DNA from: Elusimicrobiota bacterium
GTDB lineage: Bacteria; Elusimicrobiota; Elusimicrobia; UBA1565; UBA9628
Reading direction: 5' to 3'
Assembly: GCA_023249645.1 (NCBI GenBank)
Contig: JAHFCF010000004.1
Location: 821 to 64,820 of the forward strand
DNA: 64,000 nt
Position numbers and translations under genes: made by a program. Of the stretch, positions 14,929-58,710 are shown piece by piece; the first letter of the stretch is position 1, and each line of letters starts with the position of its first letter. The notes beneath the pieces were generated by a model. The model worked only from the letters and a program-made list of their open reading frames with translations. It ran no database searches and was not told where the DNA came from.

Positions 14929-14936
14929 GAGAGAAC

Positions 14937-17813: not shown

Positions 17814-17819
17814 AGACCG

Positions 17820-19196: not shown

Positions 19197-19711
19197 ACCG
19201 CCTCTGGGTGGGGATCTTCGACTCGCACGAGCATCTGTTGCGCGCGACGCGCTTGGCCCGCCAGCGCGGCTTGACGATCCACGATACCTATGCGCCCTTC
19301 CCCATCCACGGCATGGATGAGGCCATGGGCCTGGAGCCGTCGCCCCTGGGATGGTTGTGCTTTCTCTTCGCCATGACAGGTCTGACCTTGGCGCTCTCAT
19401 TCCAATACTGGGTCTCGGTCTTCGACTGGCCCATGAACATCGGCGGAAAATCCTACAATGCCTCGCCCGCGCTGCTGCCCATCGCCTTCGAGTTCACCGT
19501 CCTGTGCGCCGGATTGGGCAGCGTGGCGGCCTTCCTGTTCCTGCGCCGGCTCTCCCCGGGCAAAAAGCCGGCCCTGGGCGGCTTGGGCGCTCTCGATGAC
19601 CGATTCCTGCTGGCCCTCCAGGCCGGGCCCGAGGCCTCCGCCGAAGAACTGCGCCGTTTCCTGCAGACGCAGGGGGCCTTGGATATTCACGAGGTGGCGC
19701 CAGACTCATGA
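19193..19711 (+). CDS. actD: Alternative complex III subunit ActD (DUF3341-type membrane subunit)
   Basis: [26 protein letters not shown]... with two TM helices; ATGA overlap with actC stop; only the in-frame 3' part of ORF 18191..19711 is real. Confidence 0.8.
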
Positions 19712-23216: not shown

Positions 23217-24863
23217 TTAAGGCTTGAGCACCGCGCCGTCCGGGTGGCATTCCAGGCATTTGGCTCGGAAATCATGCTTGAGCGGCACGCGCTTGTGCGC
23301 GCCGATGTCGTGGCAGCTCACGCAGCCCATCATGTCGGTGTGGGCTTTATGCGGCATGGTCTTGCCGGCGAAGCGCACCGTTTCCGGAGGAACTTTCACC
23401 CCGATGCGGCCGTGGCATTGCAGGGCGCAATAGCTGCCGGAAAGCAGGGGCTCAGAGGAGATGTCGGGAAGATCGGCGTGGAGTTCTCTTCCCGCTTCGT
23501 CGAGGCTGCGGTCCAGAGTGCGCAACAGGACCGAGGCAAGGTAGATGTTGTGCGGGCCGTGGGCTGCTTGCAGGAAGGCGCGTAGACGCTCCGCCCGCTT
23601 CACGGCTGCTGCAGCCGCTGGCTGCGGGGTCTTCTCCAAGGCTGAGCGCGCGGCCGCGATCTTGTCGCCGGTCTTGGTCATGGCGGAATCGAGTTCCGCG
23701 CGCATCTCCTCCAGGATCCCCTGGAATTTGGCGCCGTGGCACTTGACGCAGGATTCGGGGGAAGGCTTCATAGTGTGGCCGCGAAAATCCGTGTCCGGTC
23801 CGGTCTCCGCCTGGTAGTGGCAGCCGTTGCAGTCCACATGGGCCAGATACATGGGGCTGGCCAGCTCCGGCAGGCCCACGGCCAGGTCCGGTCTCAACTT
23901 TCCGCAATAGAGCTGCAGCTGAGCCAAGTGCTTGTCCTCATGGCAGAGGCTGCAGTCGAAGACCAGGGTCGGCGGATGTCCGGCTGGAGCGGCGGCCGGC
24001 GCCGCGGCGGCGGCCGCGCCGGGCAGCTTGAGCGGCTGCTCTTGGGTCTGGAACCCATGCCGGATCTCTTCGTGGCAATGGAAGCAGGCGATGTTGTGCT
24101 TGGTGACGTGGTTTTCGTGGATGAATGGGATATCGCCGTAGCGGGCGAGATTCTCAGGCTGGTTGTGGCAGAGCAGGCAGCGTTCCTGCGGGGCTTTGCC
24201 CTTGCCCTGCACGGCTTCGAGATGGCAGTTCTGGCAGGAGACTCCCTGCCGGGTGACGAAGTCGCGGTGATTGTAGGTCATGTTGCCGAGCTGGAACGAT
24301 TTTTTCGGGAGATCGTGGCAGCCCAGGCAGCCCCCGATGGGCTTGAGTTCCTTGCCCTCTCCGCGCCCGCGGAAATGGCACAGGAAACAGGTATCATAGG
24401 TCACTTCGATATGCTTGCCGACCACGACTTGGGAATGGCAGGAGACGCATCGCAGCTGCCGGCCGCGGCGGGTTTCGGTGATGTGCGGCCGATGATCGAA
24501 GTGGATCCCGCTCTTGGTGAGCACCTTGCCTTGCAGCAGGCGCGTGGCGTGGCAGCCGGAGCGCAAACAGGAAGAGTCCTCGACCTCGGCAAAGGGCTTG
24601 GAGGAGTAGGTGCGGGTCACGTATTTGACTACCTGGGAGAGGGCCTGGAACTTCTTCCAGAGCAGGGTCCGGTGCGAGCTGGGGGGGTAATGACACTCCA
24701 CGCAGGCGATGTGATTGTGCTTGGAGGAGTGCCAGGCTTGGTAATAGGGCTCCATGATGTGACAGGAGCGGCAGAAGGAGGGGCTTGTGGAGTATTTGAC
24801 CAGACCGGCCATGATCAGAAGGACGGCCAGGCCCAGGCCGGCCAGCATCCGGATTGGTTTCAT
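23217..24863 (-). CDS. Membrane-anchored NapC/NirT/NrfH-family multiheme cytochrome c (13 CxxCH + 2 variant CX3-4CH motifs), ImcH-like
   Basis: N-terminal TM helix followed by FCRSCHIMEPYYQAWHSSKH...CVECH (NapC/NirT signature start), then CVSCH, CFLCH, CLGCH, CQNCH, CLLCH, CFHCH, CSLCH, CNGCH, CVKCH, CVSCH, CLECH plus CLRSGCH and CALQCH. Confidence 0.8.
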   Translation of the reverse strand: MKPIRMLAGLGLAVLLIMAGLVKYSTSPSFCRSCHIMEPYYQAWHSSKHNHIACVECHYPPSSHRTLLWKKFQALSQVVKYVTRTYSSKPFAEVEDSSCLRSGCHATRLLQGKVLTKSGIHFDHRPHITETRRGRQLRCVSCHSQVVVGKHIEVTYDTCFLCHFRGRGEGKELKPIGGCLGCHDLPKKSFQLGNMTYNHRDFVTRQGVSCQNCHLEAVQGKGKAPQERCLLCHNQPENLARYGDIPFIHENHVTKHNIACFHCHEEIRHGFQTQEQPLKLPGAAAAAAPAAAPAGHPPTLVFDCSLCHEDKHLAQLQLYCGKLRPDLAVGLPELASPMYLAHVDCNGCHYQAETGPDTDFRGHTMKPSPESCVKCHGAKFQGILEEMRAELDSAMTKTGDKIAAARSALEKTPQPAAAAAVKRAERLRAFLQAAHGPHNIYLASVLLRTLDRSLDEAGRELHADLPDISSEPLLSGSYCALQCHGRIGVKVPPETVRFAGKTMPHKAHTDMMGCVSCHDIGAHKRVPLKHDFRAKCLECHPDGAVLKP

Positions 24864-24933: not shown

Positions 24934-24947
24934 ATGACATTTGTCAT
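24934..24947. promoter_or_regulatory. Perfect ATGACatttGTCAT box in divergent region between the NapC-like cytochrome gene and gltA
   Basis: 14-bp box of ATGAY-N4-RTCAT type in 137-nt AT-rich divergent promoter region. Confidence 0.3.
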
Positions 24948-33360: not shown

Positions 33361-33744
33361 CTATTTCGCCGCGGCTACCTTTTTGTGGCAGTTCATGCAC
33401 TTGCTCACCGCGAAGATCTTCTTGTCTTTATCGATAGGCGAGGTCTTCACTCCATCGTGACAGAAGGCACAGAGCTTGCCGTCTTTCATGTCCTTCATCT
33501 TGAAACCGGCTTCACTGCGCTTCTGCGCAAAAAGAGGCTCCTTGCCTTCGTGGCATGCCGGGCAGCCTGATCGGTCGCCGTGGCTTTTATGTTGAAAAGT
33601 GACTGGCGCCATCTTGCCGACCTTGTCGAACACGATCTCTACCGGCGCCTTGGCCTTATCATCTGCGGCCAGGATCGGCTTCCCCACGAGGCAGCTTGCA
33701 GCCACCAAGACGACCATCACCAGATAAGAAGACATTCTTCGCAT
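33361..33744 (-). CDS. Periplasmic triheme cytochrome c7/c3-family (PpcA-like)
   Basis: Signal peptide then ~85-aa mature domain with CPACH, CAFCH, CMNCH and Lys-rich spacing typical of cytochrome c7. Confidence 0.8.
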   Translation of the reverse strand: MRRMSSYLVMVVLVAASCLVGKPILAADDKAKAPVEIVFDKVGKMAPVTFQHKSHGDRSGCPACHEGKEPLFAQKRSEAGFKMKDMKDGKLCAFCHDGVKTSPIDKDKKIFAVSKCMNCHKKVAAAK

Positions 33745-33767: not shown

Positions 33768-34850
33768 TTATACGCCGCACGGTGCAGCCACACGGGGTGC
33801 CGGCTCGCGGGACAGGATCTCGCAGAACTCGCCGGTCAGCGTTTCGGTGATCGCTTCCGCGGCCTGGATCTCTCCCTTGCGCTTGGCGAGGGTCTCGGCG
33901 ATGACGGCCTCAAGATGGTCGATGTTGTAGAGATGCACGCCTGGGATCTGCGCCGCTTCCGGGTCCACATTGCGGGGAACGCCCAGATCGATGACCAAGA
34001 GCGGTCGGCCCTGGCGGGTCTTGACCAGACCGGCGAGGCGTTCCTTGGTGACGAGATAGTGCGGGCAAGAGGTGGAGGCGATGATGACGTCCATCTCGCC
34101 GATGGCCGCCATGCCTTCCTCGAGACTGACGGCCTGCGCGCCGTATTGAGCGGCCAGGATCTGGCCCCTGCCGGAGTCGCGGTTGGCGATGGTAAGTCGC
34201 GTGCCCTTGCGCTCCAAGAGATGTTGGGCCGCGGTCTCCGCCATCTTGCCGGCGCCTACCAGAAGGATGCGGTGCTGGGTCGTGTCCGATGACAGGATCT
34301 TCTCGGCCATGGCCACGGCCGCGCCTCCGCAGCTGCAGATGCCTTGGGCGATTCCTGTCTGCGAGCGGACGTTCTTGCCCGCGGCGAAGGCGGCCTGGAA
34401 GAGCTTGTTGAGAAGCTTGTCCGTGTGGCGCGCTTGATGAGCCTGCTGGTAGGCGGTCTTTGTCTGCCCCAGGATCTGATGCTCTCCGACCACGATGGAA
34501 TCGAGTCCGGAAGACACCCGGAAGAGGTGCTGGACAGCAACCCGGCCGCGCCGGCTGAAGATGTGTCCAGCGCTTTCGGGACAGCGCTGGATGAAGAAGG
34601 CGCGCAGGAGGCTCTCGGCGACGTTGGCGTCTTTGGCGCTGGCGTAGCACTCCAGGCGGTTGCAGGTGGAGACTATGACCAAGCCGGCTAAGGAGCCTGC
34701 TTGGCGTAGCTGCTGGAGGACGGAGGGTAGCTGCTCTGGGGAAATGGAGAGGCGCTCTCGGACTTCCACCTTCGCCTCGCGGTGGCTCAGACCCACCAGG
34801 ACCAGATCGGACCAGGCGCTCAGCGGGCCCGACACGGATTCGGAGGCCAT
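33768..34850 (-). CDS. hemA: Glutamyl-tRNA reductase
   Basis: LVGLSHREAKVEVRERL, STCNRLECY active-site Cys, Rossmann GAGKMAE; 360 aa. Confidence 0.93.
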   Translation of the reverse strand: MASESVSGPLSAWSDLVLVGLSHREAKVEVRERLSISPEQLPSVLQQLRQAGSLAGLVIVSTCNRLECYASAKDANVAESLLRAFFIQRCPESAGHIFSRRGRVAVQHLFRVSSGLDSIVVGEHQILGQTKTAYQQAHQARHTDKLLNKLFQAAFAAGKNVRSQTGIAQGICSCGGAAVAMAEKILSSDTTQHRILLVGAGKMAETAAQHLLERKGTRLTIANRDSGRGQILAAQYGAQAVSLEEGMAAIGEMDVIIASTSCPHYLVTKERLAGLVKTRQGRPLLVIDLGVPRNVDPEAAQIPGVHLYNIDHLEAVIAETLAKRKGEIQAAEAITETLTGEFCEILSREPAPRVAAPCGV

Positions 34851-34871: not shown

Positions 34872-36806
34872 TCAGAATTTGACATTGACGCCGGCATTGA
34901 CGACGCTGGCCCGGCCGCTGTTGCTCGAGTCGAACTTGTCGACCCAGTTGTCGATGCGGTAGCCGGCTCGTGCCGAGAGATGTTTGTACTTGGGCGGGGT
35001 GTACTCGACGGTCACGCTGCCGCGCGCGATGCGGATGTCGCGGGGCGTGTAGTCGCCGACGGCGCCCACGGTCGAAGCCCAGTGCATCGGCGTCTCTTCC
35101 TTTGACCAAGTATAGGAGCCGTTGCCCAGGACCACGAAGCCCATGGGGAGATTGATACGGCCATGTCCTCCGACCACGGTGTTTTTTTGGCGGTTGGACA
35201 TACCTCCCTCATGCCAGGCAATAGGGCTGGTCTGGGCCGCGACCAGGGTCGCTGCCGCGTTCCCAATGAAGCCGTTGGTGAAATAGCGGATGGTTTCATA
35301 AGAGGTGTCGGCTCCCACGCAGACCTTGTTGGTGGCCGCCCAATTCAAGCTGGCCCTGTAATCGTTGCGGCTCTCGGCATGGTTCCAGGGCATCTGGCTG
35401 CCCGTCCCGTCCATGTATTCCGTCGCGAGCACCATATCCACGCGCTGGGGGAGTGGCACCGTGATGGTCAGGCTGGCATCATTCTGCCGGTTGTTTTGAT
35501 TGCCGAAAGACGAATGGTTGGCTTGAAGGCGTTTGTAATCGGCATCAGCCTCGATCCCGAAGGGAAGCTCGGCTTTCGCGCCCACTCTGAAATTATGCCG
35601 CACATCGCTGTGGGCGGTCTGAGTGTTCTGTCCATTGGGCAGGACCAGGGTGCCGTCAGAGTAATACCCCACGGTTCCTTCGTTATAATCCCCATGGTCA
35701 CGGCGGTTGTCTATCTCTATCTTATAGGCCGCCGTCAGACGGACTGCTTCCACGGGTCTGTAGTTGGCGTTAAAGTCGCCCTTGAGGTTCGTCTTGTCCA
35801 TCTGGCTGCCATTGCCCTTGTTGCCGATAGGGCTGACGTAGCCGCTGTTCTCCTCGACTTGATAGGCGTTCAGATAGAGCTTCCCGGAGAGAGAAAGGTT
35901 CTGGCGGGCTTTGTAGGCCGCGTTGAGGGCTCCGACGATGGTGTTCCTCTTGTACCCGTTGCTCAGGTTTTCCCGCTGGCGGCCTGTCAAGGCCCCGGTC
36001 AGGCCCAGGTCCTTGCCCATATCCTGGCGGAATTTCAGTTCCGCGCCGGTCATCTGCTGCGCCCCAAAAATGGGTTTGAGCGTACTGTTGATGGCGTGGG
36101 TGTCTTTGGAAGTGTTGGAGTCATCTTTGAATTCGCTGTGCACGATGTCGAGGCTCACGGCGCCGTATTCATTGATGTTGGTCCCCAGGCCGATGATTAC
36201 GTCTCTCTTTGTATTGTTGACGTTGGCGGAGCCGAGCGTCGCGGTGCCTGAGGCGGTGCCCGGAGCCCTGGCCGCCATCGATCCGAATTTTTCCACGGTC
36301 CAGAACTCGGCGGATAACCACTGGGCTGCGTTCTCGGGATTGAGGAGGATCAGGTCGATGTCTGATTCCGTGCGCCGGACGACAAACTCCGTCGTGGTCG
36401 CGATATCCACGGTGGTGAAGTGGGTGGTCGGCTGCCAGGCTCCTTTGAGGATGATCCCGGTCCGGGCGTAGTCCTGGCGGTGGTGCATCGTGTCCACTTT
36501 CGCGCTGATCCTCAGGTTGTCTTGGTAGTCAGCGTTTAAAACACCGTTTTCTTCCGTGCTTCCGATATCCTTAAGCGAGAAATCAAAGAGTCCCTGCTTG
36601 CCCTGATTGGCGAGCTTGACGTCGCCGTGCATGTCTCGATAGAGCTTTCCGTCATATTCCTGGACACGGCCCCGGCTCTGTTCGAAGTCCAGATGAACAA
36701 AGCGCATGGCCACGGCATTGTCCGTGGCGGCAGCCGCATCTTCCTCGGCGCGTGCGGACCAGGCGCCGGCGCCCATCAGCAGGCCGATCAATAGGAATCG
36801 TGTCAT
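34872..36806 (-). CDS. Large outer-membrane beta-barrel protein, candidate MtrB/MtoB/PioB-type porin partner of the upstream decaheme cytochrome
   Basis: Signal peptide (MTRFLLIGLLMGAGAWSARA), ~640 aa of Gly/Asn/Tyr-rich alternating sequence, C-terminal ...VNVKF; immediately downstream of decaheme gene on the same strand. Confidence 0.5.
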   Translation of the reverse strand: MTRFLLIGLLMGAGAWSARAEEDAAAATDNAVAMRFVHLDFEQSRGRVQEYDGKLYRDMHGDVKLANQGKQGLFDFSLKDIGSTEENGVLNADYQDNLRISAKVDTMHHRQDYARTGIILKGAWQPTTHFTTVDIATTTEFVVRRTESDIDLILLNPENAAQWLSAEFWTVEKFGSMAARAPGTASGTATLGSANVNNTKRDVIIGLGTNINEYGAVSLDIVHSEFKDDSNTSKDTHAINSTLKPIFGAQQMTGAELKFRQDMGKDLGLTGALTGRQRENLSNGYKRNTIVGALNAAYKARQNLSLSGKLYLNAYQVEENSGYVSPIGNKGNGSQMDKTNLKGDFNANYRPVEAVRLTAAYKIEIDNRRDHGDYNEGTVGYYSDGTLVLPNGQNTQTAHSDVRHNFRVGAKAELPFGIEADADYKRLQANHSSFGNQNNRQNDASLTITVPLPQRVDMVLATEYMDGTGSQMPWNHAESRNDYRASLNWAATNKVCVGADTSYETIRYFTNGFIGNAAATLVAAQTSPIAWHEGGMSNRQKNTVVGGHGRINLPMGFVVLGNGSYTWSKEETPMHWASTVGAVGDYTPRDIRIARGSVTVEYTPPKYKHLSARAGYRIDNWVDKFDSSNSGRASVVNAGVNVKF

Positions 36807-36828
36807 GGCATTATCCTCGCTGTGTCCT

Positions 36829-37695
36829 TTAGTTTTTAAACGTCGACGACCTGTCAGAGCCATGGATCTCGAAATGGCAGTCCGTGCAGCGGACCTTCCC
36901 CGTGACGCGCGCCATGCTCGTCTGCGAATGTTCCTTCAGGTGGCAGCCCAAGCACAAGGCCGGCATGGCCTGCTTGAGGAGCCGGTCGTTGACCGAGCCA
37001 TGGACGGCATGGCAGTTGGTGCAACTGTCAGAAACCGGCGCATGCTCGAAAGCGAACGGGCCGACCTTCTCTGAATGGCACTTGGCGCAGAGCTCTATCA
37101 AGGAGTCGGCCTTGAGGTTGCCCTCGACGCCGCCGTGCGGGTTGTGGCAGGAGGTGCAGGTCATCTTCCCTTCCAAAACGGGATGGTGGGAGGGCAGGTT
37201 CATGTCGGTCTTCTGCCGGGTGTGGCACTTGAGGCAGGTCTCGGTCTCGCCTTTGACGAGCGAATAGCGGCCCTCGCCGTTGTGCACGCTGTGACACTTC
37301 AGGCAGTTGACGCCGTTCTGGTTGTGGGCGCCTGTCTTCCACATCATGAGGGCCTTGGTCTCTTTGTGGCAGTCGAGGCAGAACTCGGCGCCCTCCGAGG
37401 TCGTGAGCTTGTTGGGATTGCGGATCGTGGCGTAGCCGGGATTATCCTTGTCTCCGGCCGCGGCCGCGTGCAGAGAGCCCGCGCCGTGGCAGGATTCGCA
37501 TCCGTCCTTGAGCTTCTTGGCGGAGAGGGACTTGCGACCGTGGAAAGTCTTGGCGAAGTTTTCCGCGACTTCGCTGTGGCAGTTGGCGCAGACCTCCGCG
37601 CCCACCTTGGCGGCGGTTTCCGCGGCACGCGGCTGTCGCGCGATGAGGAGCGCGCAGGCCGCGGCGAGGATGAACGAAATTGTTGGAGTCCGCAT
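36829..37695 (-). CDS. Periplasmic decaheme c-type cytochrome, MtrA/MtoA/PioA-like
   Basis: Signal peptide + 10 CxxCH in ~290 aa (CANCH, CESCH, CLDCH, CLKCH, CLKCH, CTSCH, CAKCH, CTNCH, CLGCH, CTDCH). Confidence 0.8.
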   Translation of the reverse strand: MRTPTISFILAAACALLIARQPRAAETAAKVGAEVCANCHSEVAENFAKTFHGRKSLSAKKLKDGCESCHGAGSLHAAAAGDKDNPGYATIRNPNKLTTSEGAEFCLDCHKETKALMMWKTGAHNQNGVNCLKCHSVHNGEGRYSLVKGETETCLKCHTRQKTDMNLPSHHPVLEGKMTCTSCHNPHGGVEGNLKADSLIELCAKCHSEKVGPFAFEHAPVSDSCTNCHAVHGSVNDRLLKQAMPALCLGCHLKEHSQTSMARVTGKVRCTDCHFEIHGSDRSSTFKN

Positions 37696-37808
37696 TTTTG
37701 ATGTCCTCCGTAATTTATGATGAAACATTAAGATTAGTATGACAAAAAGGTCATTTTTTCACAATGACGGACATTATGGAAAAAGGATGACGTTCGCCGG
37801 TTAAATCA

Positions 37809-38564
37809 TCAAGGAACGACTTGATTTTCCGCAAGGACGAAATTGGCGATCCCATCCTGCAGATCGTGAGGACAAGTCGCTTGGCGCAGATGGGGTTCGT
37901 CCAGAAGACGTCCCTGGGAGCCCTCGATCTCGATGAAGCCTTTGTCTCGGAACTCGGCCAGGGCGCGGCTCACACCCTCCGGAGTCGTCCCCACGATCTG
38001 GGCCAGTTCCGTGCGCGTCTCCTTGAGGATGAATTTTTTGCCGCCGAGAGCCTGGCTGGCCCGGAGCAGGATCGCCGCCAGGCGCGCGTTGACCGAGCAG
38101 ACCGTGAGGCAGTGCATCTGCTCCTCGGCGCGTCCGAGTTCCCGCGCAAATCTCTGGAGAAGGAGCCGCAGCATCTCTTGGTCCTGCCCGAAGATGGTCC
38201 AAAAATGATTTTTTTCCAGGAAGCAGATGGTGGAGTCTTCCATCGCCTGCCCCGTGCAGGCATAGAGCCTGTCGGCGAAGAATGAGCGGTCTCCGAGAAG
38301 ATTCGGGGCGTCCACGATGCGCACGATCTGGCTGCGTCCGCTCGGGCTTTCCTTGAAGAGCTTGATGCGGCCACGGCAGATGAAATACACCCCTGTCGGC
38401 CGGTTGCCCTGGTAGAAGAGGATATTGCCCTTGCGGTAGGTGTTGGCCGTCATGAACTGCTGACCGCGCTTCCAGGCTTGCGCGGACACATGCTCAAAGA
38501 ATGGAAGACGACGGATGGGGCAGGAACGCCCCAGGTGGCTGCAGCAGTCTTTTTTATCCGGCAT
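37809..38564 (-). CDS. Crp/Fnr-family transcriptional regulator with N-terminal Cys cluster (Fnr-like)
   Basis: N-terminal DCCSHLGRSCP, cNMP-binding-like core, C-terminal HTH (TRTELAQIVGTTPEGVSRAL). Confidence 0.8.
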   Translation of the reverse strand: MPDKKDCCSHLGRSCPIRRLPFFEHVSAQAWKRGQQFMTANTYRKGNILFYQGNRPTGVYFICRGRIKLFKESPSGRSQIVRIVDAPNLLGDRSFFADRLYACTGQAMEDSTICFLEKNHFWTIFGQDQEMLRLLLQRFARELGRAEEQMHCLTVCSVNARLAAILLRASQALGGKKFILKETRTELAQIVGTTPEGVSRALAEFRDKGFIEIEGSQGRLLDEPHLRQATCPHDLQDGIANFVLAENQVVP

Positions 38565-39324
38565 AGGAGTGCAGGCCGCTCATGAGGTAGTTGACGCCGA
38601 AATAGGTGAAGAGGACGAAGGCGAAGCCGGCGACGGAGAACCAAGCCATGCTCCGGCCCTGCCAGCGGTGGGTGCGGCGCAGGTGGATGGCCGCGGTGTA
38701 GACGATCCAGGTGATGAGCGACCAAGTCTCCTTGGGGTCCCAGGACCAATAGGAGCCCCAGGCCTCGTTGGCCCAGACCGCTCCCAGGATGATGCCCGCG
38801 GTCAGCAGAAGATAGCCCAGCCCCATGGCCCGCTCGTTGAAGCGGTCCAGGGCTTGGTCCGTGTCGGTCGTGAGGTAAACGGCGGAGGCCAAAAAGGACA
38901 AGGCCAGGGCGGCGTAGGCCAGCATGATGACGCTCACGTGCAGGAGCAGCCAGTTGGAGCGCAGGGCCGGCACCAGCGGCGCGACCGTCGAATCCAGCAA
39001 GGCGCACAGTCCAAGCAAGGCCAGGCTCAGAGCGCTGATCGCCGGTCCCAGCCAGTCTCCGGGGGCCAGGCGATGGAAGCAGAAGGCCAGAGCCGTGATG
39101 CCCCACGACATGCTGACCAGCGACTCGAATTGATTCGCCAAAGGAACGTGGCCTGAAGCGCGCCAGCGATACATAAGGAAGAGTGTCTGCAGCAGCCAGG
39201 CCGCCGCCAGAGCCGCGTGGCCTGTCCGCCGCAAGCCGGGCTTCGCGAACATATAACCCGCCGCATAGAGGATCAGAGCCGCTAGGTAGAAGGCGAAGGA
39301 GAGATTGAGGAAGGTCGCGTTCAT
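38554..39324 (-). CDS. ccsA: Cytochrome c-type biogenesis protein CcsA (system II heme handling)
   Basis: WGSYWSWDPKETW WWD-domain motif, polytopic; internal Met MNATFLN chosen as start; ATGA overlap with ccsB stop. Confidence 0.9.
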   Translation of the reverse strand: MNATFLNLSFAFYLAALILYAAGYMFAKPGLRRTGHAALAAAWLLQTLFLMYRWRASGHVPLANQFESLVSMSWGITALAFCFHRLAPGDWLGPAISALSLALLGLCALLDSTVAPLVPALRSNWLLLHVSVIMLAYAALALSFLASAVYLTTDTDQALDRFNERAMGLGYLLLTAGIILGAVWANEAWGSYWSWDPKETWSLITWIVYTAAIHLRRTHRWQGRSMAWFSVAGFAFVLFTYFGVNYLMSGLHSYAG

Positions 39325-40352
39325 TTTTTCCTCCGGAGGAATGTCCACGTCAGTCCGACGGTGAGGAGAAGAAATCCGGCATAGACCAGCGGCACGCCAG
39401 GGTCCCGGCTGACCAGGAGGCTGGAATACTGGGGATTCTCGGGATCGTAGCCGGCTTGATAAAGGGTGTAGCCTCCCCAGCGCAGGGGCTGGTTGACCTC
39501 GATGGCGCGCCGCACGGCGACCCATCCGCCCTGGATGATGGCGACCTGGCTGTGGAACTGCTTGATCTTCCCGAAGGCGGGTTCGTAGGAGACTTGATAG
39601 CGGCTCTTGGCTTCTCCGTGGAAGTCAGGGAATCGGGCGAAGGCCCAGTGTTTTTCAGAGCCTTCACGGTCCGTGATCTCCAGGTGCAGGGCGGGATTCT
39701 GGGGCGCTGAGGAGCGCGTGGCCGGACCCTGGTTGTCGATGATGAAATCAGGGAAGTACTCTAAGACTTTGATCTGGATGGCTCCGGCGCGCAGCAGCGC
39801 CGTGGCGCCCGGCTGGACGTCGAACTTCTCGCTCCAACCCTCACGGCGGCTGGTCACGGTGAGGCTGTGCAGGCCGGAGTCATAGTACTCGATGCCGAAG
39901 TCCTCGAGCTTGACGGAGAAAGGCAGCCGGAAGCCCTGGGGGCCCTCGGTCATGTTCTTGCTTTCGCCCACGCTCAGGGGGAGGCTCCCGTGCAGGCCCA
40001 GGATCGCGCTGAGCATCCCTCCGATGAGGATCGTCAAGACCGCCAGGTGGGTCAAGAGCACGTCGAGGCGCAATCGCACACCGCGCGTAAGGAGAACGCC
40101 GTCGCGCGGTGCCTGGCCCTTTCCATACAGCCAGGCATGGATCTGGCGCTGCCAGGTGCAGAGGGTCAGGTTGATCCCCAAGAGGCCCAGGAGAGCCGTG
40201 AAGAGGAGGGAATGGTAGATGTCTATTTTGGGGAGCAGGGTCCCTGCCACGCAGAGGAGGAGCAAGGCGAGCAGGAGTCCATAAAGGAAGGGGGGTGAAG
40301 CCAGAAAGTCCAAGGCTTTGGAGACAGTGCCTTCCTTATTGTGATGGGTCAT
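39321..40352 (-). CDS. ccsB: Cytochrome c biogenesis protein CcsB/ResB (system II)
   Basis: 343 aa, N-terminal TM helices, large periplasmic domain, C-terminal TM; partnered with ccsA. Confidence 0.85.
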   Translation of the reverse strand: MTHHNKEGTVSKALDFLASPPFLYGLLLALLLLCVAGTLLPKIDIYHSLLFTALLGLLGINLTLCTWQRQIHAWLYGKGQAPRDGVLLTRGVRLRLDVLLTHLAVLTILIGGMLSAILGLHGSLPLSVGESKNMTEGPQGFRLPFSVKLEDFGIEYYDSGLHSLTVTSRREGWSEKFDVQPGATALLRAGAIQIKVLEYFPDFIIDNQGPATRSSAPQNPALHLEITDREGSEKHWAFARFPDFHGEAKSRYQVSYEPAFGKIKQFHSQVAIIQGGWVAVRRAIEVNQPLRWGGYTLYQAGYDPENPQYSSLLVSRDPGVPLVYAGFLLLTVGLTWTFLRRKK

Positions 40353-42195
40353 GTCGTTTCTGGTGTTCTAGCCGGGTCTTGCCGGTTATCCAGGCCCAGC
40401 TCATGGGGTAGACTTCGGGGTCGAAGATGGTCCAGTAGAGGTGCCAGACCAGGATGGCCAGGCAGGCGAGGACAGCTTCCATGAAGTGGATCAGCAGGCA
40501 TAGATCGATGAACCATTTGGACAGGAACCTCAGCGACAGCTCACGCCACCAGGCCACGCCGCCGGTGACAATCATGATGCCGCTGCCCCACATCAGGGCC
40601 CAGTATTCGGCCTTCTCGATGTAGTTGAAGCGGTCGAATTTTGGCGGGCCGCCGCGATGTAAGAGATTGTACCGCTGCAGTTGCAGAAAGTCCAGGAAGT
40701 CGCGCCAGCGCGGAGAGAGGGCCTTGAGCTCTCGGCGTCCTTCCGGGGTGGCCGTGAGCCAGTAGAGGTGATAGGCGCCCAACGTGAGGAAGATCACGGC
40801 GAAGAGGCGGTGCAGGAAGGCGCGCTGAGCCGCGCCCGCGGCGCCATGGAAGACAGCCTGAGCCCAGAAGGCTTCTGGGTATGTATGGCAGAATCCCGTG
40901 TAGGCCAGTCCGATGAACGAGACGAGAAGGATGAGATGCTGTATCCGCTCATTGCGGCTCATCCGCAGTTCCTTGGGATCGTGCGCGTGATCGGGGCCGA
41001 GGAGGAGTTTGCGCTTGTGGTCCAGAAAATTATGGAGGAGCATGCCGCCGATGGTCGCCAGGATGAGCCAGATGTAGATCTTGCGGACGGTCTGAAGCAC
41101 CGTCTCGCGGATGTCGCGCGAGGTCGTGGAGAAGGTCATGTGGACCTTCCCCAGATGGACCAGCTCTCCGGCGCGGCTGTGGCAGGCGCCGCAGGTTTTC
41201 TGGAGGTTCGCGGGATTGACCGATGAATCGGGGTCCGAGGAGGGCAGGATGTCATGATAGCGGTGGCAGGAGGCGCAGTTGGCTGAGGCCAGGTTGCCGG
41301 CCACGAAGGCTACTCCGTGGTAGCTGTCCAGGTAGGTCCGGGCGGGGTCGAGGGGCATGCCAAATTTGGCGATGAGCAGTTCCGAGCCGTGGCAGGCGCT
41401 GCAGGTCTTGACGATGGAGCCGGTGTAGACCATGGAACCGGGCTCCTTGTGGGCCGTGATGTTGTGCTCTCCGTGGCAATTCGTGCAGACCGGCGCGTCC
41501 TTGACCCCGGATGCGGACTTCACCCCGTGGATGGAGCGTGAATAAGCAGCCAGAGCTTTCGGGTGGCAGCGGCCGCAGGTTTGGGGGATGTTGAACTTGT
41601 AGGCGCGGCTTCGGGAGTTGTTGGAGAAGTTGAGATCATGCGCGCCGTGGCAGTCGATGCAGACCGCGGCCTTGGAATCTTGGTGTTCCAGCATGGCTTT
41701 CCCATGCACGCTCGCCGTGTAGGTGGAGAAAGGCTCTAGGCCGAACTTCCCTTTGAAGTCGAGCTTCTGGTGACAGCGGTTGCAGGTCATCGGGATGCGG
41801 GAGCGGGAGACCGGAGAGGATGGACCGGAGGTGCGGCTCATTTCATGAGGCGGGCCATGACAGGCGGCGCAGAGGGCGGCGCCCTTGTGGGTTTTTGCTA
41901 AGAGCTTGCCGTGGTCCGAGGAGTGGAGGACTTGCGATATTTTTTGGTGGCAGGCCTCGCAGGAGACCGGCGGTGCCTTGGGATCGTGGGGGACTTCCTC
42001 CTTGCCGGCGTGGCAGGAACTGCAGCCCAGGTCCTTGTGCACTGACTTTTGGAAGCGGGCCGCGTGTATCTGGGGCGCGCCGCTGGCGCGATCGGCATGG
42101 CAGGCCAGGCAGGACGCGTCATCTCCGGCCCATGCCGTGGTCGCGGCCCAGAGCATCCAGGCCACGGCGGAGCAGAACCGCGCCGGGGTCCTCAT
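40336..42195 (-). CDS. Fusion of an 11-heme periplasmic cytochrome c domain with a C-terminal HydC/FdnI-like di-heme cytochrome b membrane domain (CbcL-like quinol oxidoreductase)
   Basis: Signal peptide (MRTPARFCSAVAWMLWAATTAWA), 11 CxxCH, then 4-5 TM helices with conserved His (Ni/Fe-hydrogenase b-type cytochrome subunit-like); ATGA overlap with upstream regulator gene. Confidence 0.8.
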   Translation of the reverse strand: MRTPARFCSAVAWMLWAATTAWAGDDASCLACHADRASGAPQIHAARFQKSVHKDLGCSSCHAGKEEVPHDPKAPPVSCEACHQKISQVLHSSDHGKLLAKTHKGAALCAACHGPPHEMSRTSGPSSPVSRSRIPMTCNRCHQKLDFKGKFGLEPFSTYTASVHGKAMLEHQDSKAAVCIDCHGAHDLNFSNNSRSRAYKFNIPQTCGRCHPKALAAYSRSIHGVKSASGVKDAPVCTNCHGEHNITAHKEPGSMVYTGSIVKTCSACHGSELLIAKFGMPLDPARTYLDSYHGVAFVAGNLASANCASCHRYHDILPSSDPDSSVNPANLQKTCGACHSRAGELVHLGKVHMTFSTTSRDIRETVLQTVRKIYIWLILATIGGMLLHNFLDHKRKLLLGPDHAHDPKELRMSRNERIQHLILLVSFIGLAYTGFCHTYPEAFWAQAVFHGAAGAAQRAFLHRLFAVIFLTLGAYHLYWLTATPEGRRELKALSPRWRDFLDFLQLQRYNLLHRGGPPKFDRFNYIEKAEYWALMWGSGIMIVTGGVAWWRELSLRFLSKWFIDLCLLIHFMEAVLACLAILVWHLYWTIFDPEVYPMSWAWITGKTRLEHQKRHDPSQ

Positions 42196-42944
42196 TGGGG
42201 AGACTGTTCGAGGGAGATGTTTTCGAGGGCGGTCCGGTTGCGGACTTCGATGGCCTTTCCCGTGAGACGGATGAGGCCCCGGTTCTGGAAAGAGGAGAGG
42301 GTGCGGATCACGGTCTCCGGAGAGAGTCCGAGATTCTCCGCGATGTCCCGACGGCTGTAATGGAAATGGCCATGGCAAGGCAGGGCGGCCGCCGGCGCGG
42401 GCGGGGTGCGCAGCGAGATGAGGAAGTTCGCCAACCGGGCTTCGGCCGAGCGAAAGGCGAAACTAAAGACCCGGTCCATGCTCTGGCACATGTAGCGGCT
42501 GACCCGGCGCAGGAGCCGTTTGGGAAGCTCCGGCTCATGGGAGGCTAGGTAGTCCACGAGTTCGCGCGGCAGGAAGCAGACCACGGATTCGCGCATGGTT
42601 TCCGCCGAGGCGCAATAGGACTGTATGCCCAGGAAAGGAGCCTCGCCCACCAGGTCGCCGCAGGAGTGATACATGAGCGTCAGTTCGCGTCCGCGCTGGT
42701 CGGATTTGGTGATCTTGACGTCGCCGACGCAGAGGATGAAGATGCCTTGGGGCGTCTCGCCCTCCTGAAAGATGAACTGATGGGTCTTGTAGCGTCGCAT
42801 TTGGCGTTGGGTCCGGAAGTGTTTCATGGATTCGGGCGACAGAAAGTTGAAGAAGCAGCGCTTGCGGCAGTCGCAGTCGCGGCAATGCTCGGCCGGCTGG
42901 AAGGGACAGGACAGGGGAGATGTGGGGGTTCTTTTGTATCCCAT
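42192..42944 (-). CDS. Crp/Fnr-family transcriptional regulator with N-terminal Cys cluster (Fnr-like), paralog 2
   Basis: N-terminal CPFQPAEHCRDCDCRKRC, cNMP-binding-like core, C-terminal HTH (SRRDIAENLGLSPETVIRTL); stop overlaps start of CbcL-like gene. Confidence 0.8.
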   Translation of the reverse strand: MGYKRTPTSPLSCPFQPAEHCRDCDCRKRCFFNFLSPESMKHFRTQRQMRRYKTHQFIFQEGETPQGIFILCVGDVKITKSDQRGRELTLMYHSCGDLVGEAPFLGIQSYCASAETMRESVVCFLPRELVDYLASHEPELPKRLLRRVSRYMCQSMDRVFSFAFRSAEARLANFLISLRTPPAPAAALPCHGHFHYSRRDIAENLGLSPETVIRTLSSFQNRGLIRLTGKAIEVRNRTALENISLEQSPQ

Positions 42945-43956: not shown

Positions 43957-44550
43957 ATGGCCCTGGAACAGACGATCAAATACGAGGCGGAGCGCGACAG
44001 GGATTTCGCCCGATGGGTGATGGACCAGAGCGGCGGAGACAACCTGCGGCACTGCATCCAGTGCGGGATCTGCAGCGCCACCTGTCCGTTATCCTTGTAT
44101 ATGGACTACACCCCGCGCCGTCTCATCAACCTGGCTCGGGAGGGCTTCAAGCAGGAGGTCTTAAGCTCGTTTACGATCTGGCTGTGCGCCAGCTGCTATG
44201 CCTGCCGGGTGGAGTGCCCCAAGAAGATCCAGGTGACGGACATCATGTACGCCTTGAAGCGCCGGGCCATCCAGGATGGCGTCTATCCGCGGCGCTTCCC
44301 CATCCCGGTGCTGGCGCGCGAGTTCGGGCGCATGATCTTCCTCTTCGGCCGCGTGAGCGAGACCCTGCTCGTCATCGACCTCTTCTTGCGCACCAGCTGG
44401 TTCAAGTTCCTGAGCATGACCGGCCTGGGCATGGACCTGCTGCGGACCGGCCGCATGTCGTTCCTTCCGGAGCGCATCCAGCGCCGCGCCGAGCTGCGCC
44501 AGGTCCTCGATGCTCTGGATGCCGAGGAGAAGAAGGAGGCGTCCCGATGA
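43957..44550 (+). CDS. hdrC: Heterodisulfide reductase subunit C-like (2x[4Fe-4S])
   Basis: CIQCGICSATCP and CASCYACRVECP ferredoxin motifs, 197 aa. Confidence 0.85.
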   Translation: MALEQTIKYEAERDRDFARWVMDQSGGDNLRHCIQCGICSATCPLSLYMDYTPRRLINLAREGFKQEVLSSFTIWLCASCYACRVECPKKIQVTDIMYALKRRAIQDGVYPRRFPIPVLAREFGRMIFLFGRVSETLLVIDLFLRTSWFKFLSMTGLGMDLLRTGRMSFLPERIQRRAELRQVLDALDAEEKKEASR

Positions 44551-45407
44551 GATATCTCTATTTTCCGGGCTGTTCTTTGAAGGGCACGGGCAGAGCCTAT
44601 GAAGAATCCCTGCTGGCGGTGTTCGGGGCCTTGGGCGTCGAACTCCAGGAGATCGACGATTGGAACTGCTGCGGCGCCACGGCCTACATGTCCGTGGACG
44701 AGACCAAGTCTTATGCCCTGGCCGGCCGCAACCTGGCATTGGCCGAGCGCGAGGACCTCGATGTGATCGCGCCTTGCAGCGCCTGCTACCTGGTCCTCAA
44801 TAAGACCCAGAAAGGACTCGCCGAGCACCCCGAGCTTCATCGCAAGGTGGTCAAGGCTCTGAAAGCCGGCGGGTTGGACTACAAGGGAACGGTCAGGGTC
44901 CGGCATCCTCTCGATGTTCTGGTCAATGACGTGGGCTTGGACAAGATCGCCGCGCTGATCAAGAACCCGATGAAGGGACATCGGTTCGCGACCTATTACG
45001 GCTGCCAGATCGTGCGGCCCTATGCGACTTTCGACGATCAGGACGATCCCATGACCATGGAGAAACTTCTCAAGGCTGCGGGCGCCGAATGCGTGAGTTA
45101 TCCCTTGAAGACCCGCTGCTGCGGCGGCAGCCTCACGGGGACGCTCCCCGAAGTGGGGCTGCGGCTGGCCTACATCCTCATTAAGGAAGCCAAGAAGCGC
45201 GGAGCCGAGGCGATCGTCACGGTCTGTCCGCTCTGCCAGTTCAATCTGGACGGCACCCAGGGACAGATCGCCAAGAAGTATGAGCGGGTCGATCTGCCCA
45301 TCGTCTATTTCACCCAGATCCTGGGGTTGGCTATGGGGATCTCCGCTTCAGAGCTGGGTCTCACGCGCGGGATCATCCCCGCCCAAGCCGTCCTGGCCGG
45401 GAGGTAA
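44547..45407 (+). CDS. hdrB: Heterodisulfide reductase subunit B-like (CCG domains)
   Basis: MRYLYFPGCSL..., two Cys-rich CCG-type domains (CCG, CPLCQFN); ATGA overlap with hdrC. Confidence 0.85.
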   Translation: MRYLYFPGCSLKGTGRAYEESLLAVFGALGVELQEIDDWNCCGATAYMSVDETKSYALAGRNLALAEREDLDVIAPCSACYLVLNKTQKGLAEHPELHRKVVKALKAGGLDYKGTVRVRHPLDVLVNDVGLDKIAALIKNPMKGHRFATYYGCQIVRPYATFDDQDDPMTMEKLLKAAGAECVSYPLKTRCCGGSLTGTLPEVGLRLAYILIKEAKKRGAEAIVTVCPLCQFNLDGTQGQIAKKYERVDLPIVYFTQILGLAMGISASELGLTRGIIPAQAVLAGR

Positions 45408-45410
45408 GCC

Positions 45411-47408
45411 ATGGAACATCCCCAAGAGAAGAACGGTCGGCCCCGCATCGGTTTCTACATCTGCCATTGCGGCTCCAACATCGCCAGCATGATCGACGTG
45501 GCTGAGGTCCAGCAATACATCGCCGCGCTCCCTGGCGTGAAAGTATCGCGCGATTACAAATATATGTGCTCGGATCCGGGCCAGGAGATGATCGCCCAGG
45601 ACATCCGCGAGCACAAGCTCGAACGCCTTGTCGTGGCCGCCTGCTCGCCGAACCTGCATGAGGAGACCTTCCGCAAGGCCGCGGTCAAGGGCGGTCTCAA
45701 TGCTTTCTATTTCCAGATGGTCAACATCCGCGAGCACGCCGCCTGGGTACACACGGATAGGAGATCCGCGACGGAAAAAACCAAGGATCTGGCCCGCGCC
45801 GCGGTCTATCGGGTGCACTTTCACAAGGCGCTCGAAAAGCGGCAGGTTCCGGTCAGCCCTGAGGTGCTTGTGGTGGGGGGAGGGATCGCCGGCATCCACG
45901 CGGCCCTGACCCTGGCCAACGCGGGCAAGAAGGTGACCTTGGTCGAGCGCGAGGCCACCATCGGCGGACACATGGCGATGTTCGACAAGACCTTCCCGAC
46001 TTTGGACTGCGCGGCCTGCATCCTCACGCCTAAGATGTCGGCGGTCAAGTCGCATCCAAACATCACGCTCTGGACCTATTCCGAGGTGGTCCAGGTGGAA
46101 GGATATGTCGGCAACTACAAGGTCACGGTCAAGCGAAAGCCGCGCTATATCAAGGAAGACCTCTGCGTCGGATGCATGGAGTGCATCGACGCCTGCGTGT
46201 TCAAGGAACCGAAGTTCTCCGACAAGTTCAACCAGGGCCTGGGCAAGCGCAAGCCCATCTACATCGACTTCCCACAGGCCACTCCCAAGGTCGTGCTGAT
46301 CGATCCGCAGACCTGCATCCAGTTCAAGACCGGCAAGTGCAAGAAGACCTGTGTTGAGTCATGCGACCGCGAGGCCATCGACTTTGCTCAGAAGGAGGAG
46401 ATGCGGGAGCTCCAGGTCGGCGCCATCGTGCTGGCCACGGGCTTTAAGACTTTCGACGCCAAGCGCGAGCCGCATTACGGCTACGGCCGCTACCCCGGCG
46501 TCTTCACGGCGCTCGAGATCGAGCGGCTGGTCAACGCCTCGGGCCCTACGGCCGGTGAGGTTGTTGGCAGAGATGGGAAGCACCCTCGGGCCGTGGGGAT
46601 CATCCACTGCGTGGGCTCGCGCGACGAGAAGACGAACAAGTGGTGCTCGCGGGTCTGCTGCATGTACTCCTTGAAGCTCGCGCACCTCATCCAGGAGCAT
46701 TCCGGCGCCGAGGTCTACAACTTCTACATCGACATGCGCGCGCCAGGCAAGGCTTATGAGGAATTCTACGACAAGCTCCTTGCCGAGGGCGTCCATTTCG
46801 TGCGCGGCCGCGTGGCCGAGGTCACGGACTGGGCCATGACTCCTGAAGAGGAGGGCCGACTCGTCCTGCGCGTGGAAGACACCTTGGCCGGCTTCGTGCG
46901 CCGCATCCCGGTCGACATGGTGGTCCTCTCCACGGGCCTCGAGCCCCAGGCGGACGCCCAGGCGGTCCGCCGTTGCTTCAACATCGGCTGCGGCAGCGAG
47001 GGCTTCTTTCAGGAGCGTCATCCCAAGCTCGCCCCGGTCAATACCTTCACGGACGGCATCTTCATCGCGGGCGCTTGCCAGGCGCCCAAGGACATCCCGG
47101 ACACCGTGGCCCAGGCCGGGGCCGCGGCGGCCGAGGCTCTGGTCCTCATCGATTCAGGCCATGTGGAGCTCGAGCCCAACACCTCGTACGTGGTGGAGGA
47201 GGAGTGCAGCGGCTGCAAATCCTGCGTGCCGCTGTGTCCCTACACCGCCATCTCCTTCGATGGGGAGAAGAAGAAGGCCATGATCAACGAGGTGCTCTGC
47301 AAGGGCTGCGGGGTCTGTGTCGCGGCCTGCCCGTCAGGCTCGATCAGGCAGAATCTGTTCGATGACGATGAGATCTTCAGCGAGATCGAGGGGGTCATGG
47401 CGAAATGA
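45411..47408 (+). CDS. hdrA: Heterodisulfide reductase subunit A (FAD, multiple FeS)
   Basis: 665 aa, VVGGGIAGIHAAL FAD motif, multiple CxxCxxCxxxCP clusters, N-terminal CHCGSN. Confidence 0.9.
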   Translation: MEHPQEKNGRPRIGFYICHCGSNIASMIDVAEVQQYIAALPGVKVSRDYKYMCSDPGQEMIAQDIREHKLERLVVAACSPNLHEETFRKAAVKGGLNAFYFQMVNIREHAAWVHTDRRSATEKTKDLARAAVYRVHFHKALEKRQVPVSPEVLVVGGGIAGIHAALTLANAGKKVTLVEREATIGGHMAMFDKTFPTLDCAACILTPKMSAVKSHPNITLWTYSEVVQVEGYVGNYKVTVKRKPRYIKEDLCVGCMECIDACVFKEPKFSDKFNQGLGKRKPIYIDFPQATPKVVLIDPQTCIQFKTGKCKKTCVESCDREAIDFAQKEEMRELQVGAIVLATGFKTFDAKREPHYGYGRYPGVFTALEIERLVNASGPTAGEVVGRDGKHPRAVGIIHCVGSRDEKTNKWCSRVCCMYSLKLAHLIQEHSGAEVYNFYIDMRAPGKAYEEFYDKLLAEGVHFVRGRVAEVTDWAMTPEEEGRLVLRVEDTLAGFVRRIPVDMVVLSTGLEPQADAQAVRRCFNIGCGSEGFFQERHPKLAPVNTFTDGIFIAGACQAPKDIPDTVAQAGAAAAEALVLIDSGHVELEPNTSYVVEEECSGCKSCVPLCPYTAISFDGEKKKAMINEVLCKGCGVCVAACPSGSIRQNLFDDDEIFSEIEGVMAK

Positions 47409-47920
47409 ATAAGAATTCAGAGTCCGTGCCTTCCGGGAAAGGAGAAAGTCTTCCCTCCAGGCACGGCGGGCCCATGCCCGCCGAGCCTAAGATCGTGGCG
47501 TTCTTCTGCAACTGGTGCACGTACACGGCCGCGGACCTGGCCGGCGTCTCGCGCCTGAAATACGCCCCCAATGTCCGCGTGATCAGGGTCATGTGCTCGG
47601 GCCGGGTGGACCCTCAGTTCGTCTTGGACGCCTTTGCGCGCGGGGCTGACGGGGTCCTGCTGGGCGGCTGCCATCCCGGCGACTGCCACTATGCGGAGGG
47701 CAACTACAAGACCCTTCGCCGTATGCGCATGTTGGCCCGCATGCTCAAGGACATGGGCATCCATGACGGCCGCTTCCGCCTGGAGTGGATCTCCGGAGCT
47801 GAGGGCGACAAGGTCAAGGCCGTGGTCAATGACATGACGGCCAAGGTGCGCGCCCTGGGTCCATTGAACATGCCCGATAGATTCAAGGAATGGGACAAGG
47901 AGATGGTCCATGCCCGATAA
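47405..47920 (+). CDS. mvhD: Methyl-viologen-reducing hydrogenase delta subunit (MvhD)
   Basis: IVAFFCNWCTYTAADLAG...MCSGRVDP...GGCHPGDCHY MvhD-family Cys pattern. Confidence 0.85.
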   Translation: MNKNSESVPSGKGESLPSRHGGPMPAEPKIVAFFCNWCTYTAADLAGVSRLKYAPNVRVIRVMCSGRVDPQFVLDAFARGADGVLLGGCHPGDCHYAEGNYKTLRRMRMLARMLKDMGIHDGRFRLEWISGAEGDKVKAVVNDMTAKVRALGPLNMPDRFKEWDKEMVHAR

Positions 47921-48875: not shown

Positions 48876-48884
48876 GAGCCCATC

Positions 48885-53903: not shown

Positions 53904-54060
53904 CCGAGTCGATCTCCTTGTTCGTGGGATGCTTCCCACCTTGCCTACAGGATTCTAGCAGAGCCGCGCTCGGCCGATATGGGTCTTTAGGGCAGAAAAA
54001 TAGAAGTCTTTAGACCCACTCCGCGTGGGACTTTCGACCTATGCTGTTTTTTGAGGGGGG

Positions 54061-56344: not shown

Positions 56345-56381
56345 GACACCCTCCGACGCTGCGCGTGCTGCTGTAGCTTCC

Positions 56382-58661: not shown

Positions 58662-58693
58662 GTATCCCCCTTTCAGATATTCAAGAGCATGAC

Positions 58694-58710
58694 TGCTATC
58701 AATGATAGCA
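58694..58710. promoter_or_regulatory. 17-bp palindrome TGCTATCAaTGATAGCA in divergent norZ / rrf2-hcp promoter region; candidate Rrf2 (NsrR-like) operator
   Basis: Perfect 8-bp arms; overlaps an ATGACtgctATCAA box (58689-58702); TATAAT at 58723-58728. Confidence 0.4.

Follow-up and report, generated by a model that had tools for sequence, protein, structure and literature searches.

A probable MtrAB/MtoAB/PioAB-type porin-cytochrome conduit encoded in an Elusimicrobiota genome

Porin-cytochrome conduits enable Gram-negative cells to respire, or to feed on, solids that cannot be taken up, and the distribution of these conduits shapes how one interprets the cycling of iron, manganese and humic matter in aquifers. 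In Shewanella the conduit is MtrCAB, in which the surface decaheme cytochrome MtrC accompanies MtrA and the barrel MtrB, whereas MtoAB of Sideroxydans/Gallionella and PioAB of Rhodopseudomonas palustris consist of two components and have no surface cytochrome. The Pcc and Ext conduits of Geobacter (OmaB-OmbB-OmcB and ExtABCD) share the functional principle of a barrel in the outer membrane that houses a multiheme cytochrome of the periplasm, and are built from 8-haem or other cytochromes, barrels of approximately 20–21 strands that are unrelated to MtrB, and outer lipoprotein cytochromes. Here we analyzed a 64-kb stretch of an Elusimicrobiota contig (JAHFCF010000004.1, positions 821 to 64,820; hereafter the window), the sequence of which is identical to one contig in ENA and one in Logan. 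An earlier note on this DNA had placed a decaheme cytochrome gene and a following outer-membrane barrel gene at 34872–37695. These coordinates contain exactly the two reading frames, which lie on the minus strand in the order cytochrome then porin and, as the note had described, are separated by exactly 22 nt. Family, predicted fold and conserved pairing support its proposal that the two proteins constitute an MtrAB/MtoAB/PioAB-type porin-cytochrome complex, a reading that we consider highly probable.

The first gene of the pair (36829–37695, minus strand) encodes a probably periplasmic c-type cytochrome of the MtrA/MtoA/DmsE family with a putative Sec signal peptide. The protein has 288 amino acids counted from the second Met, instead of the 289 given earlier (a longer frame of 299 amino acids begins at 37728), and the count of ten CxxCH motifs was correct: they start at residues 36, 66, 106, 131, 154, 180, 203, 225, 248, and 270, among a total of 21 His and 21 Cys. 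The N-terminus, MRTPTISFILAAACALLIARQPRAAE, is hydrophobic and Sec-signal-like, and no canonical lipobox was recognized in it by eye. The protein scored 233.3 bits against the NCBIfam model TIGR03508 (DmsE/MtrA/MtoA/PioA family), exceeding the curated cut-off of 192.2. The highest raw score, 248.5 bits, was obtained with NF041028 (GSU2203/OmcK family), which is under the cut-off of 325 for that model. The NrfB and NrfH models gave at most 56 bits, far lower than TIGR03508.

A sequence search among all PDB chains returned 6r2q_A as the best match of the decaheme (E 1.7e-42). Chain A of 6r2q is MtrA of the solved Mtr complex; the chain label in the PDB file is wrong. The ten haem motifs pair one-to-one, and in order, with those of this Shewanella baltica MtrA. 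Besides the His of the motifs, 41 homologs of the decaheme have nine invariant His residues, and most of them have a tenth; these are candidates for the distal ligands, and their number is that expected for ten bis-His haems. An AlphaFold2 model, which is free of haem, had a predicted local distance difference test score (pLDDT) of 85, and the sole significant PDB match in a fold search with it was again 6r2q_A (E 3.8e-13, template-modelling (TM) scores 0.65/0.70). From its family score and its predicted elongated MtrA fold, the decaheme is assigned to the DmsE/MtrA family.

The second gene (34872–36806, minus strand) encodes an outer-membrane beta-barrel predicted to belong to the MtrB/PioB superfamily. 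A GAGGA ribosome-binding site lies 8 nt ahead of its ATG, inside the 22-nt gap. The protein begins with MTRFLLIGLLMGAGAWSARA and terminates with ...VNVKF; it has 644 residues, a signal peptide and a C-terminal Phe, in agreement with the approximately 645-residue, Phe-ending protein described before. Its composition (A 10.1, G 9.3, N 7.8, T 7.6, and Y 3.9%) justifies the earlier description as rich in Gly and Asn but not in Tyr, which shows no special enrichment. There is one Cys, and neither CxxC nor CxxCH occurs.

The structure of the barrel was predicted with AlphaFold from the family alignment, giving an all-beta model (pLDDT 82.7, predicted TM score 0.75). The top Foldseek match of this model was MtrB (6r2q_B; E 2.2e-18, TM 0.71), and the runners-up were 22-strand TonB-dependent transporters (E 1.7e-8, TM 0.45), a lead of ten orders of magnitude in E-value. 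The model superposes on MtrB across 533 residues at 3.2 Å. In the DSSP string, short periplasmic turns of 2–7 residues alternate with longer extracellular loops, and we interpret this pattern as a topology of about 26 trans-membrane strands in which the N- and C-terminus both face the periplasm. MtrB itself has 26 strands, with which this reading agrees. The model describes a large MtrB-like barrel of approximately 26 strands that is predicted to be wide enough for a decaheme.

Profile comparison points in the same direction. Only 74 relatives of the barrel were recovered when 1.84 billion representative proteins were searched with its profile. Twenty-eight of the 44 members of the barrel family match PF11854 (MtrB_PioB) at E<0.01 (best 1.8e-10), and six of the ten most distant relatives scanned pass the PF11854 threshold with 33–59 bits. 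When the 44-sequence family was aligned with these six PF11854-positive proteins by hhalign, homology was detected with a probability of 99.9% (E 1.4e-32) over 586 columns. Both groups share an N-terminal (V/Q)EYDG(K/R) motif and a C-terminal DW-D--D--N-G---------F ending. We conclude that the barrel is probably a divergent MtrB/PioB member, one of a small clade that was met with in no phylum other than Elusimicrobiota, and its recognition as such is new.

Several points weigh against this assignment and against the complex. The barrel by itself scored 21.7–22.0 bits against PF11854, under the gathering score of 23. Searches of the PDB chains with the single sequence and with the 44-sequence profile returned nothing relevant, MtrB included; the best matches were a RAGE fragment (E 0.7) and a TPR protein (E 0.16). 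Neither phmmer nor the family profile recovered MtrB starting from the barrel. Because these sequence searches were fruitless, fold comparison was needed, and the link to MtrB is made through a structure prediction and through profile homology that is transitive. Placement of the decaheme in the barrel lumen is likewise drawn from analogy with 6r2q. The barrel also scored 24.3 bits against NF041027 (GSU2204 family CXXCH-containing (seleno)protein), the cut-off of which is 350, and thus falls outside that family. These scores under the curated thresholds of Pfam and NCBIfam, and the public annotation of the protein as hypothetical, could be taken to mean that there is no complex at all, the decaheme being a soluble periplasmic carrier and the barrel an unrelated large diffusion or uptake channel. 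The wide margin by which MtrB surpasses the 22-strand TonB-dependent transporters as a structural match, the full-length profile homology to MtrB_PioB proteins and the failure of a Pfam scan to find a plug or TonB-box domain in the barrel all speak against such a channel. So does the strict short-distance pairing of the two genes across Elusimicrobiota species described below, and we regard this explanation as very improbable.

The distribution of the pair was examined by scanning one representative genome per species, 185,579 species in all, with the barrel family as the query. Fourteen barrel loci were found, all labelled Elusimicrobiota (one as Candidatus Endomicrobium trichonymphae) and many of them from groundwater or aquifer sediment. 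In 12 of the 13 loci that were long enough to examine, an open reading frame (ORF) with ten CxxCH motifs lies on the same strand 32–100 nt upstream of the barrel gene; in the thirteenth, the upstream cytochrome ORF is split, with 3 and 6 motifs. The same decaheme-barrel arrangement is present in the related loci L003 and L005–L009. Homologs of the barrel with 40–49% identity come almost entirely from metagenome-assembled genomes (MAGs) of Elusimicrobia/Elusimicrobiota and are publicly annotated as 'hypothetical protein'. Two further observations concern individual genomes. In the Elusimicrobia MAG GCA_028714015.1 (L007, 5877–12058), two decaheme-barrel pairs stand in tandem and are followed by Rieske/cytochrome b genes. 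A pair is carried by a MAG labelled 'Candidatus Endomicrobium trichonymphae' (L017, CALRXP010000077.1). This bacterium is a reduced-genome intracellular symbiont of termite-gut protists, and the label therefore looks doubtful.

The pair belongs to a cluster of ten genes on the same strand, running from 42944 down to 32895. At its head is an FNR-like regulator of the Crp/Fnr family (42192–42944) with an N-terminal CxxCxCxxxC motif, which scored 88.8 bits against the Fnr model, below the cut-off. The next gene (40336–42195) encodes a 619-residue inner-membrane protein resembling CbcL/MtoC/MtrH, in which an 11-haem periplasmic c domain precedes a HydC/FdnI-type cytochrome b. The protein has a signal peptide and 11 CxxCH motifs, and matched PF01292 (Ni_hydr_CYTB) with 49 bits and the formate-dehydrogenase-gamma-like model TIGR01583 with 44.7 bits. 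The published description of the family is a multiheme c domain with 3–23 haems at the N-terminus, fused to a multi-helix cytochrome b (PMC6295460), and by this description the predicted protein fits the CbcL/MtoC/MtrH quinol oxidoreductase architecture. Two genes for System II cytochrome c biogenesis follow: that for the ResB/CcsA-partner (39321–40352; PF05140 ResB, 120 bits) and that for the 256-residue haem lyase subunit CcsB (38554–39324; TIGR03144, 238 bits against a cut-off of 188). A second Crp/Fnr-family regulator with cNMP_binding and HTH_Crp_2 domains (37809–38564) is encoded directly upstream of the decaheme.

Downstream of the barrel gene are hemA (33768–34850), which encodes a short glutamyl-tRNA reductase of 360 residues (TIGR01035, 321 bits, model positions 2–333 of 416), and a gene for a 127-residue c7-type triheme periplasmic cytochrome resembling PpcA (33361–33744; three CxxCH motifs; TIGR04257, 49.3 bits against a cut-off of 40). 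A gene for a stand-alone cNMP-binding protein is the last member of the cluster. The CbcL-like, ResB, CcsB, hemA and c7 genes overlap or are closely spaced. HemA catalyzes the first step of haem synthesis, and short hemA genes (348–371 residues) also occur near the pair in L003, L005, L007, L008, and L009. A strong promoter-like site (TG-TATAAT) was observed at 34885–34857, just ahead of hemA. Across six related loci, the recurring core consists of hemA, a Crp/Fnr regulator, the decaheme and the barrel, with System II genes nearby. The inner-membrane quinol-linked modules of these loci are CbcL-like in L005 and L008, NapC/NirT-like in L003, L005, and L009, and of the Rieske/cytochrome b type in L003 and L007; in L003, a monoheme class-I cytochrome c comes immediately after the barrel, like MtoD. 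The tie between the decaheme-barrel pair and this conserved island of hemA, Crp/Fnr and System II genes is new.

Compared with MtrAB of Shewanella, the pair is alike in the ten aligned CxxCH motifs (33% identity to MtrA in the structural alignment), in a barrel of approximately 26 strands that can be superposed on MtrB, and in gene order. The differences are that the barrel is merely 12–15% identical to MtrB and, having a single Cys, lacks a CxxC motif; that MtrA is longer than the decaheme (333 versus 288 residues); and that the inner-membrane partner is CbcL-like instead of CymA. MtoAB and PioAB resemble the window pair in having two components without a surface cytochrome, and a CbcL/MtoC-type c/b fusion in the same cluster is a feature shared with the mtoAB-mtoC clusters (PMC6295460). 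On the other hand, the periplasmic partner in the window is a c7-type triheme cytochrome, whereas those of MtoAB and PioAB are the class-I monoheme MtoD and the high-potential iron-sulfur protein PioC, respectively. The long N-terminal extension of PioA is missing from the decaheme, and the host is a likely heterotrophic member of Elusimicrobiota, not a known iron oxidizer. With OmcK (GSU2203)/GSU2204 of Geobacter sulfurreducens, the pair has in common that their models are the best NCBIfam matches for both proteins, and the CbcL-like and c7 triheme partners are of the Geobacter type. However, both scores are under the cut-offs, and the barrel has neither the CxxCH motif that defines the GSU2204 family nor its selenocysteine. 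None of the cytochrome, small-barrel and lipoprotein features of the Geobacter Pcc/Ext conduits was seen in the window pair.

The window has seven multiheme ORFs, none of which encodes a surface decaheme of the MtrC/OmcA type, and none was found in the related loci examined; the window thus does not hold a complete MtrCAB module. The earlier remark that no MtrC-like gene is adjacent thus extends to the whole 64 kb, and the MtrC-less layout is that of MtoAB and PioAB. Matches of the window's multiheme ORFs to PF22113 were faint (E approximately 1e-3, below threshold). The 9-haem protein encoded at 8915–10201 was considered as the missing surface cytochrome and rejected, since it has a C-terminal membrane anchor and its gene follows a cytochrome b gene.

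One might suppose that the conduit feeds a dedicated extracellular terminal reductase, such as a surface molybdoenzyme encoded elsewhere, in the manner of DmsEF, and does not act on minerals directly. The decaheme does satisfy the 'DmsE family' model, its homologs in the genomes of relatives are publicly annotated as 'DmsE family decaheme c-type cytochrome', and MtrAB-type cores are modular (PMC8805035). Beside the pair, however, neither the window nor the related loci examined contain a DmsAB-like or other exported catalytic subunit, and the only molybdopterin protein of the window belongs to an Alternative Complex III (ACIII)-like cluster. We therefore consider a DmsEF-like role very unlikely.

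The analysis shows the families and predicted folds of the two proteins, their conserved pairing and the makeup of the cluster, whereas how the cytochrome enters the barrel, the route and direction of the electrons and the regulation are inferred. Assuming an MtrAB/MtoAB/PioAB-type complex, we propose the following. The decaheme would be exported by Sec, and its ten haems would be attached by the ResB/CcsB System II of the same cluster, with the adjacent hemA supplying haem precursor. By analogy with 6r2q, the decaheme would thread into the lumen of the barrel of approximately 26 strands, and electrons would pass along a chain of ten bis-His haems spanning the outer membrane. The CbcL/MtoC-like c/b fusion may link this chain to the quinol pool, and the c7-type triheme cytochrome may ferry electrons across the periplasm. 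Because an MtrC-like surface cytochrome is missing, contact with the exterior would fall to the decaheme's own terminal haem.

A possible second link to the quinol pool is a NapC/NirT-anchored cytochrome of 548 residues encoded 10 kb from the pair (23217–24863, minus strand), with PF03264 at the N-terminus, 13 CxxCH motifs and, in addition, 2 longer variants of the motif. Along its entire length it shares 55% identity with a protein encoded at 2126–3817 of L005, inside the decaheme-barrel island of that locus. A 500-residue NapC/NirT-like protein of L008 was rejected as its ortholog, since only an 86-residue N-terminal stretch matched.

Whether electrons flow outward to reduce Fe(III) and humics or inward from the oxidation of Fe(II) is not decided by sequence alone, since the phylogeny of MtrAB homologs does not part oxidizing from reducing systems and MtrCAB can run backwards (PMC8805035). 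We lean, with about even confidence, towards outward flow, in which extracellular Fe(III)/Mn(IV), chelated metals or humic substances would be respired anaerobically through the conduit. A CbcL-like protein together with a c7 triheme cytochrome is the reductive chain of the Geobacter type, which is one reason for this preference. Another is that the best-scoring NCBIfam models of the two proteins are those of Geobacter OmcK/GSU2203 and GSU2204; GSU2204 belongs to the MtrB/PioB family (PMC13188914), and both are reported to be up-regulated on iron oxides (PMC4070692). The FNR-like regulator at the head of the cluster, and the tricarboxylic acid-cycle enzymes and NiFe hydrogenase encoded in the window as electron sources, also led us to this preference.

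The same conduit may instead take up electrons in the manner of MtoAB/PioAB, oxidizing Fe(II), reduced minerals or humics at the outer haem and passing the electrons through periplasmic cytochromes to terminal oxidases, the quinol-type nitric oxide reductase (qNOR) or ACIII. Alternatively, the CbcL/MtoC-like protein would run in reverse and deliver them to the quinone pool. A number of facts count on this side and against outward flow. The MtrC-less module found here and in every related locus examined is the layout of the Fe(II)-oxidizing MtoAB and PioAB; the CbcL family includes MtoC of iron oxidizers (PMC6295460); and ACIII and qNOR, both encoded in the window, are possible sinks for electrons taken up. 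In L003 and L007, moreover, the pair adjoins Rieske/cytochrome b and class-I c-type cytochromes, the L003 gene after the barrel being the MtoD-like monoheme, and this neighborhood resembles those of iron oxidizers and the RBG-1 clusters (PMC3903129). The failure of phylogeny to separate the two kinds of MtrAB homologs also tells against outward flow. Against uptake are the c7-type triheme cytochrome in the place of a class-I monoheme, the origin of the nearest named models in the Fe(III) reducer Geobacter, and the reversibility of MtrAB-type wires, which makes the layout alone non-diagnostic. Carbon-fixation genes were not seen in the 64-kb window either, which is a weak argument for the genome as a whole. 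On balance, electron uptake appears possible but rather doubtful.

Expression of the pair is probably controlled by one or both of the neighboring Crp/Fnr-family regulators. Within the 113 nt that separate the decaheme gene from the regulator gene before it, the palindrome ATGAC-N6-GTCAT (37739–37754), a candidate operator for a Crp/Fnr-family protein, overlaps the sigma-70-like -35 hexamer of a promoter-like site (37745–37717, minus strand). Sites of the form ATGAC-N4-6-GTCAT occur twice in the 64 kb versus 0.10 expected, and both precede multiheme cytochrome genes; the second, ATGAC-N4-GTCAT at 24934–24947, is 71 nt upstream of the 13-haem cytochrome gene. The closest syntenic locus, L008, has ATGAC-N4-GTCAT ahead of its decaheme, and at the equivalent place L003 and L007 have a perfect TTGAT-N4-ATCAA and L009 a version of it with one mismatch. 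The presence of operator-like sites before the decaheme in the window and in its relatives fits control by the Crp/Fnr family. The canonical FNR box (TTGAT-N4-ATCAA, at most one mismatch) was sought as well and is absent from the promoters of the window cluster, its single match being intragenic and at chance level; the candidate sites proposed for the window are therefore the ATGAC/GTCAT palindromes and not a classical FNR site.

The decaheme-adjacent regulator shares 52–55% identity with its positional counterparts in L003, L005, L007, and L009. We rejected it as an oxygen-sensing FNR since its N-terminal cysteines are not conserved in these orthologs. An MHC--(V/A)C motif and, at the C-terminus, ACLH are common to all of the orthologs, a hint that sensing works in another way, perhaps through redox or haem.

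Other genes of the window were noted in passing. The ACIII-like cluster (13876–22056, plus strand) encodes a 6-CxxCH cytochrome, a 1016-residue molybdopterin/iron-sulfur protein, NrfD and ActD, and its final protein, of 782 residues, has seven class-I cytochrome c domains. At 7911–10201 (plus strand), a cytochrome b gene overlaps the gene of the 9-haem cytochrome with the C-terminal membrane anchor, and the two look like a separate membrane bc-type module. A nitric-oxide-related region (55100–60799) encodes a DUF438/hemerythrin/PAS protein, the quinol-type nitric oxide reductase with a NorB cytochrome c-like domain, and a hybrid-cluster protein. Heterodisulfide-reductase-like proteins (one with a CCG domain, one FAD/FeS HdrA-like) followed by the NiFe hydrogenase small and large subunits are encoded at 43957–50408 (plus strand). 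A 536-residue protein (10020–11630, plus strand) combines several ankyrin repeats with a subsequent caspase-like Peptidase_C14 domain, a pairing that is unusual in bacteria. Two prolipoprotein diacylglyceryl transferase (lgt) genes stand in tandem and overlap (4858–5652 and 5637–6422, plus strand). Four ORFs of 311–449 residues (11743–13092, 22053–23216, 51975–52910, and 52926–53939) gave no Pfam match, and the second of them directly follows the ACIII-like cluster.

Systems of this type are well known, automatic annotation in public records already covers the cytochrome half, and the mechanism is no surprise. In the main genomic survey of Elusimicrobia, respiration with oxygen and nitrogen oxides is described, and there is no mention of iron, of extracellular electron transfer or of porins (bioRxiv 10.1101/765248). 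In the literature searched, which covered few subscription journals and in which absence is no proof, we found no published link of Elusimicrobiota to MtrA, MtoA or MtrB; the sole related entry is a table count of two CbcL/MtoC homologs in Elusimicrobiota (PMC6295460). Because the barrel is annotated as hypothetical and its more distant relatives mostly lack any Pfam match, hidden Markov model screens that require matches to both MtrA and MtrB would miss this clade. The 44-sequence alignment of the barrel family could be used to extend such MtrAB screens.

An MtrB-like barrel strictly paired with a decaheme is a testable candidate for extracellular electron exchange in Elusimicrobiota. The MAGs with the paired locus are mostly from groundwater or aquifer sediment. 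We tentatively suggest that groundwater Elusimicrobiota may possess a phylum-specific, MtrC-less MtrAB clade through which electrons pass to or from iron minerals or humic matter. The extreme version of this idea is that electrons taken up from Fe(II) would be passed to ACIII, oxidases or qNOR. If that version were true, a phylum so far described as fermentative or oxygen/nitrate-respiring would be an unrecognized player in subsurface iron cycling.

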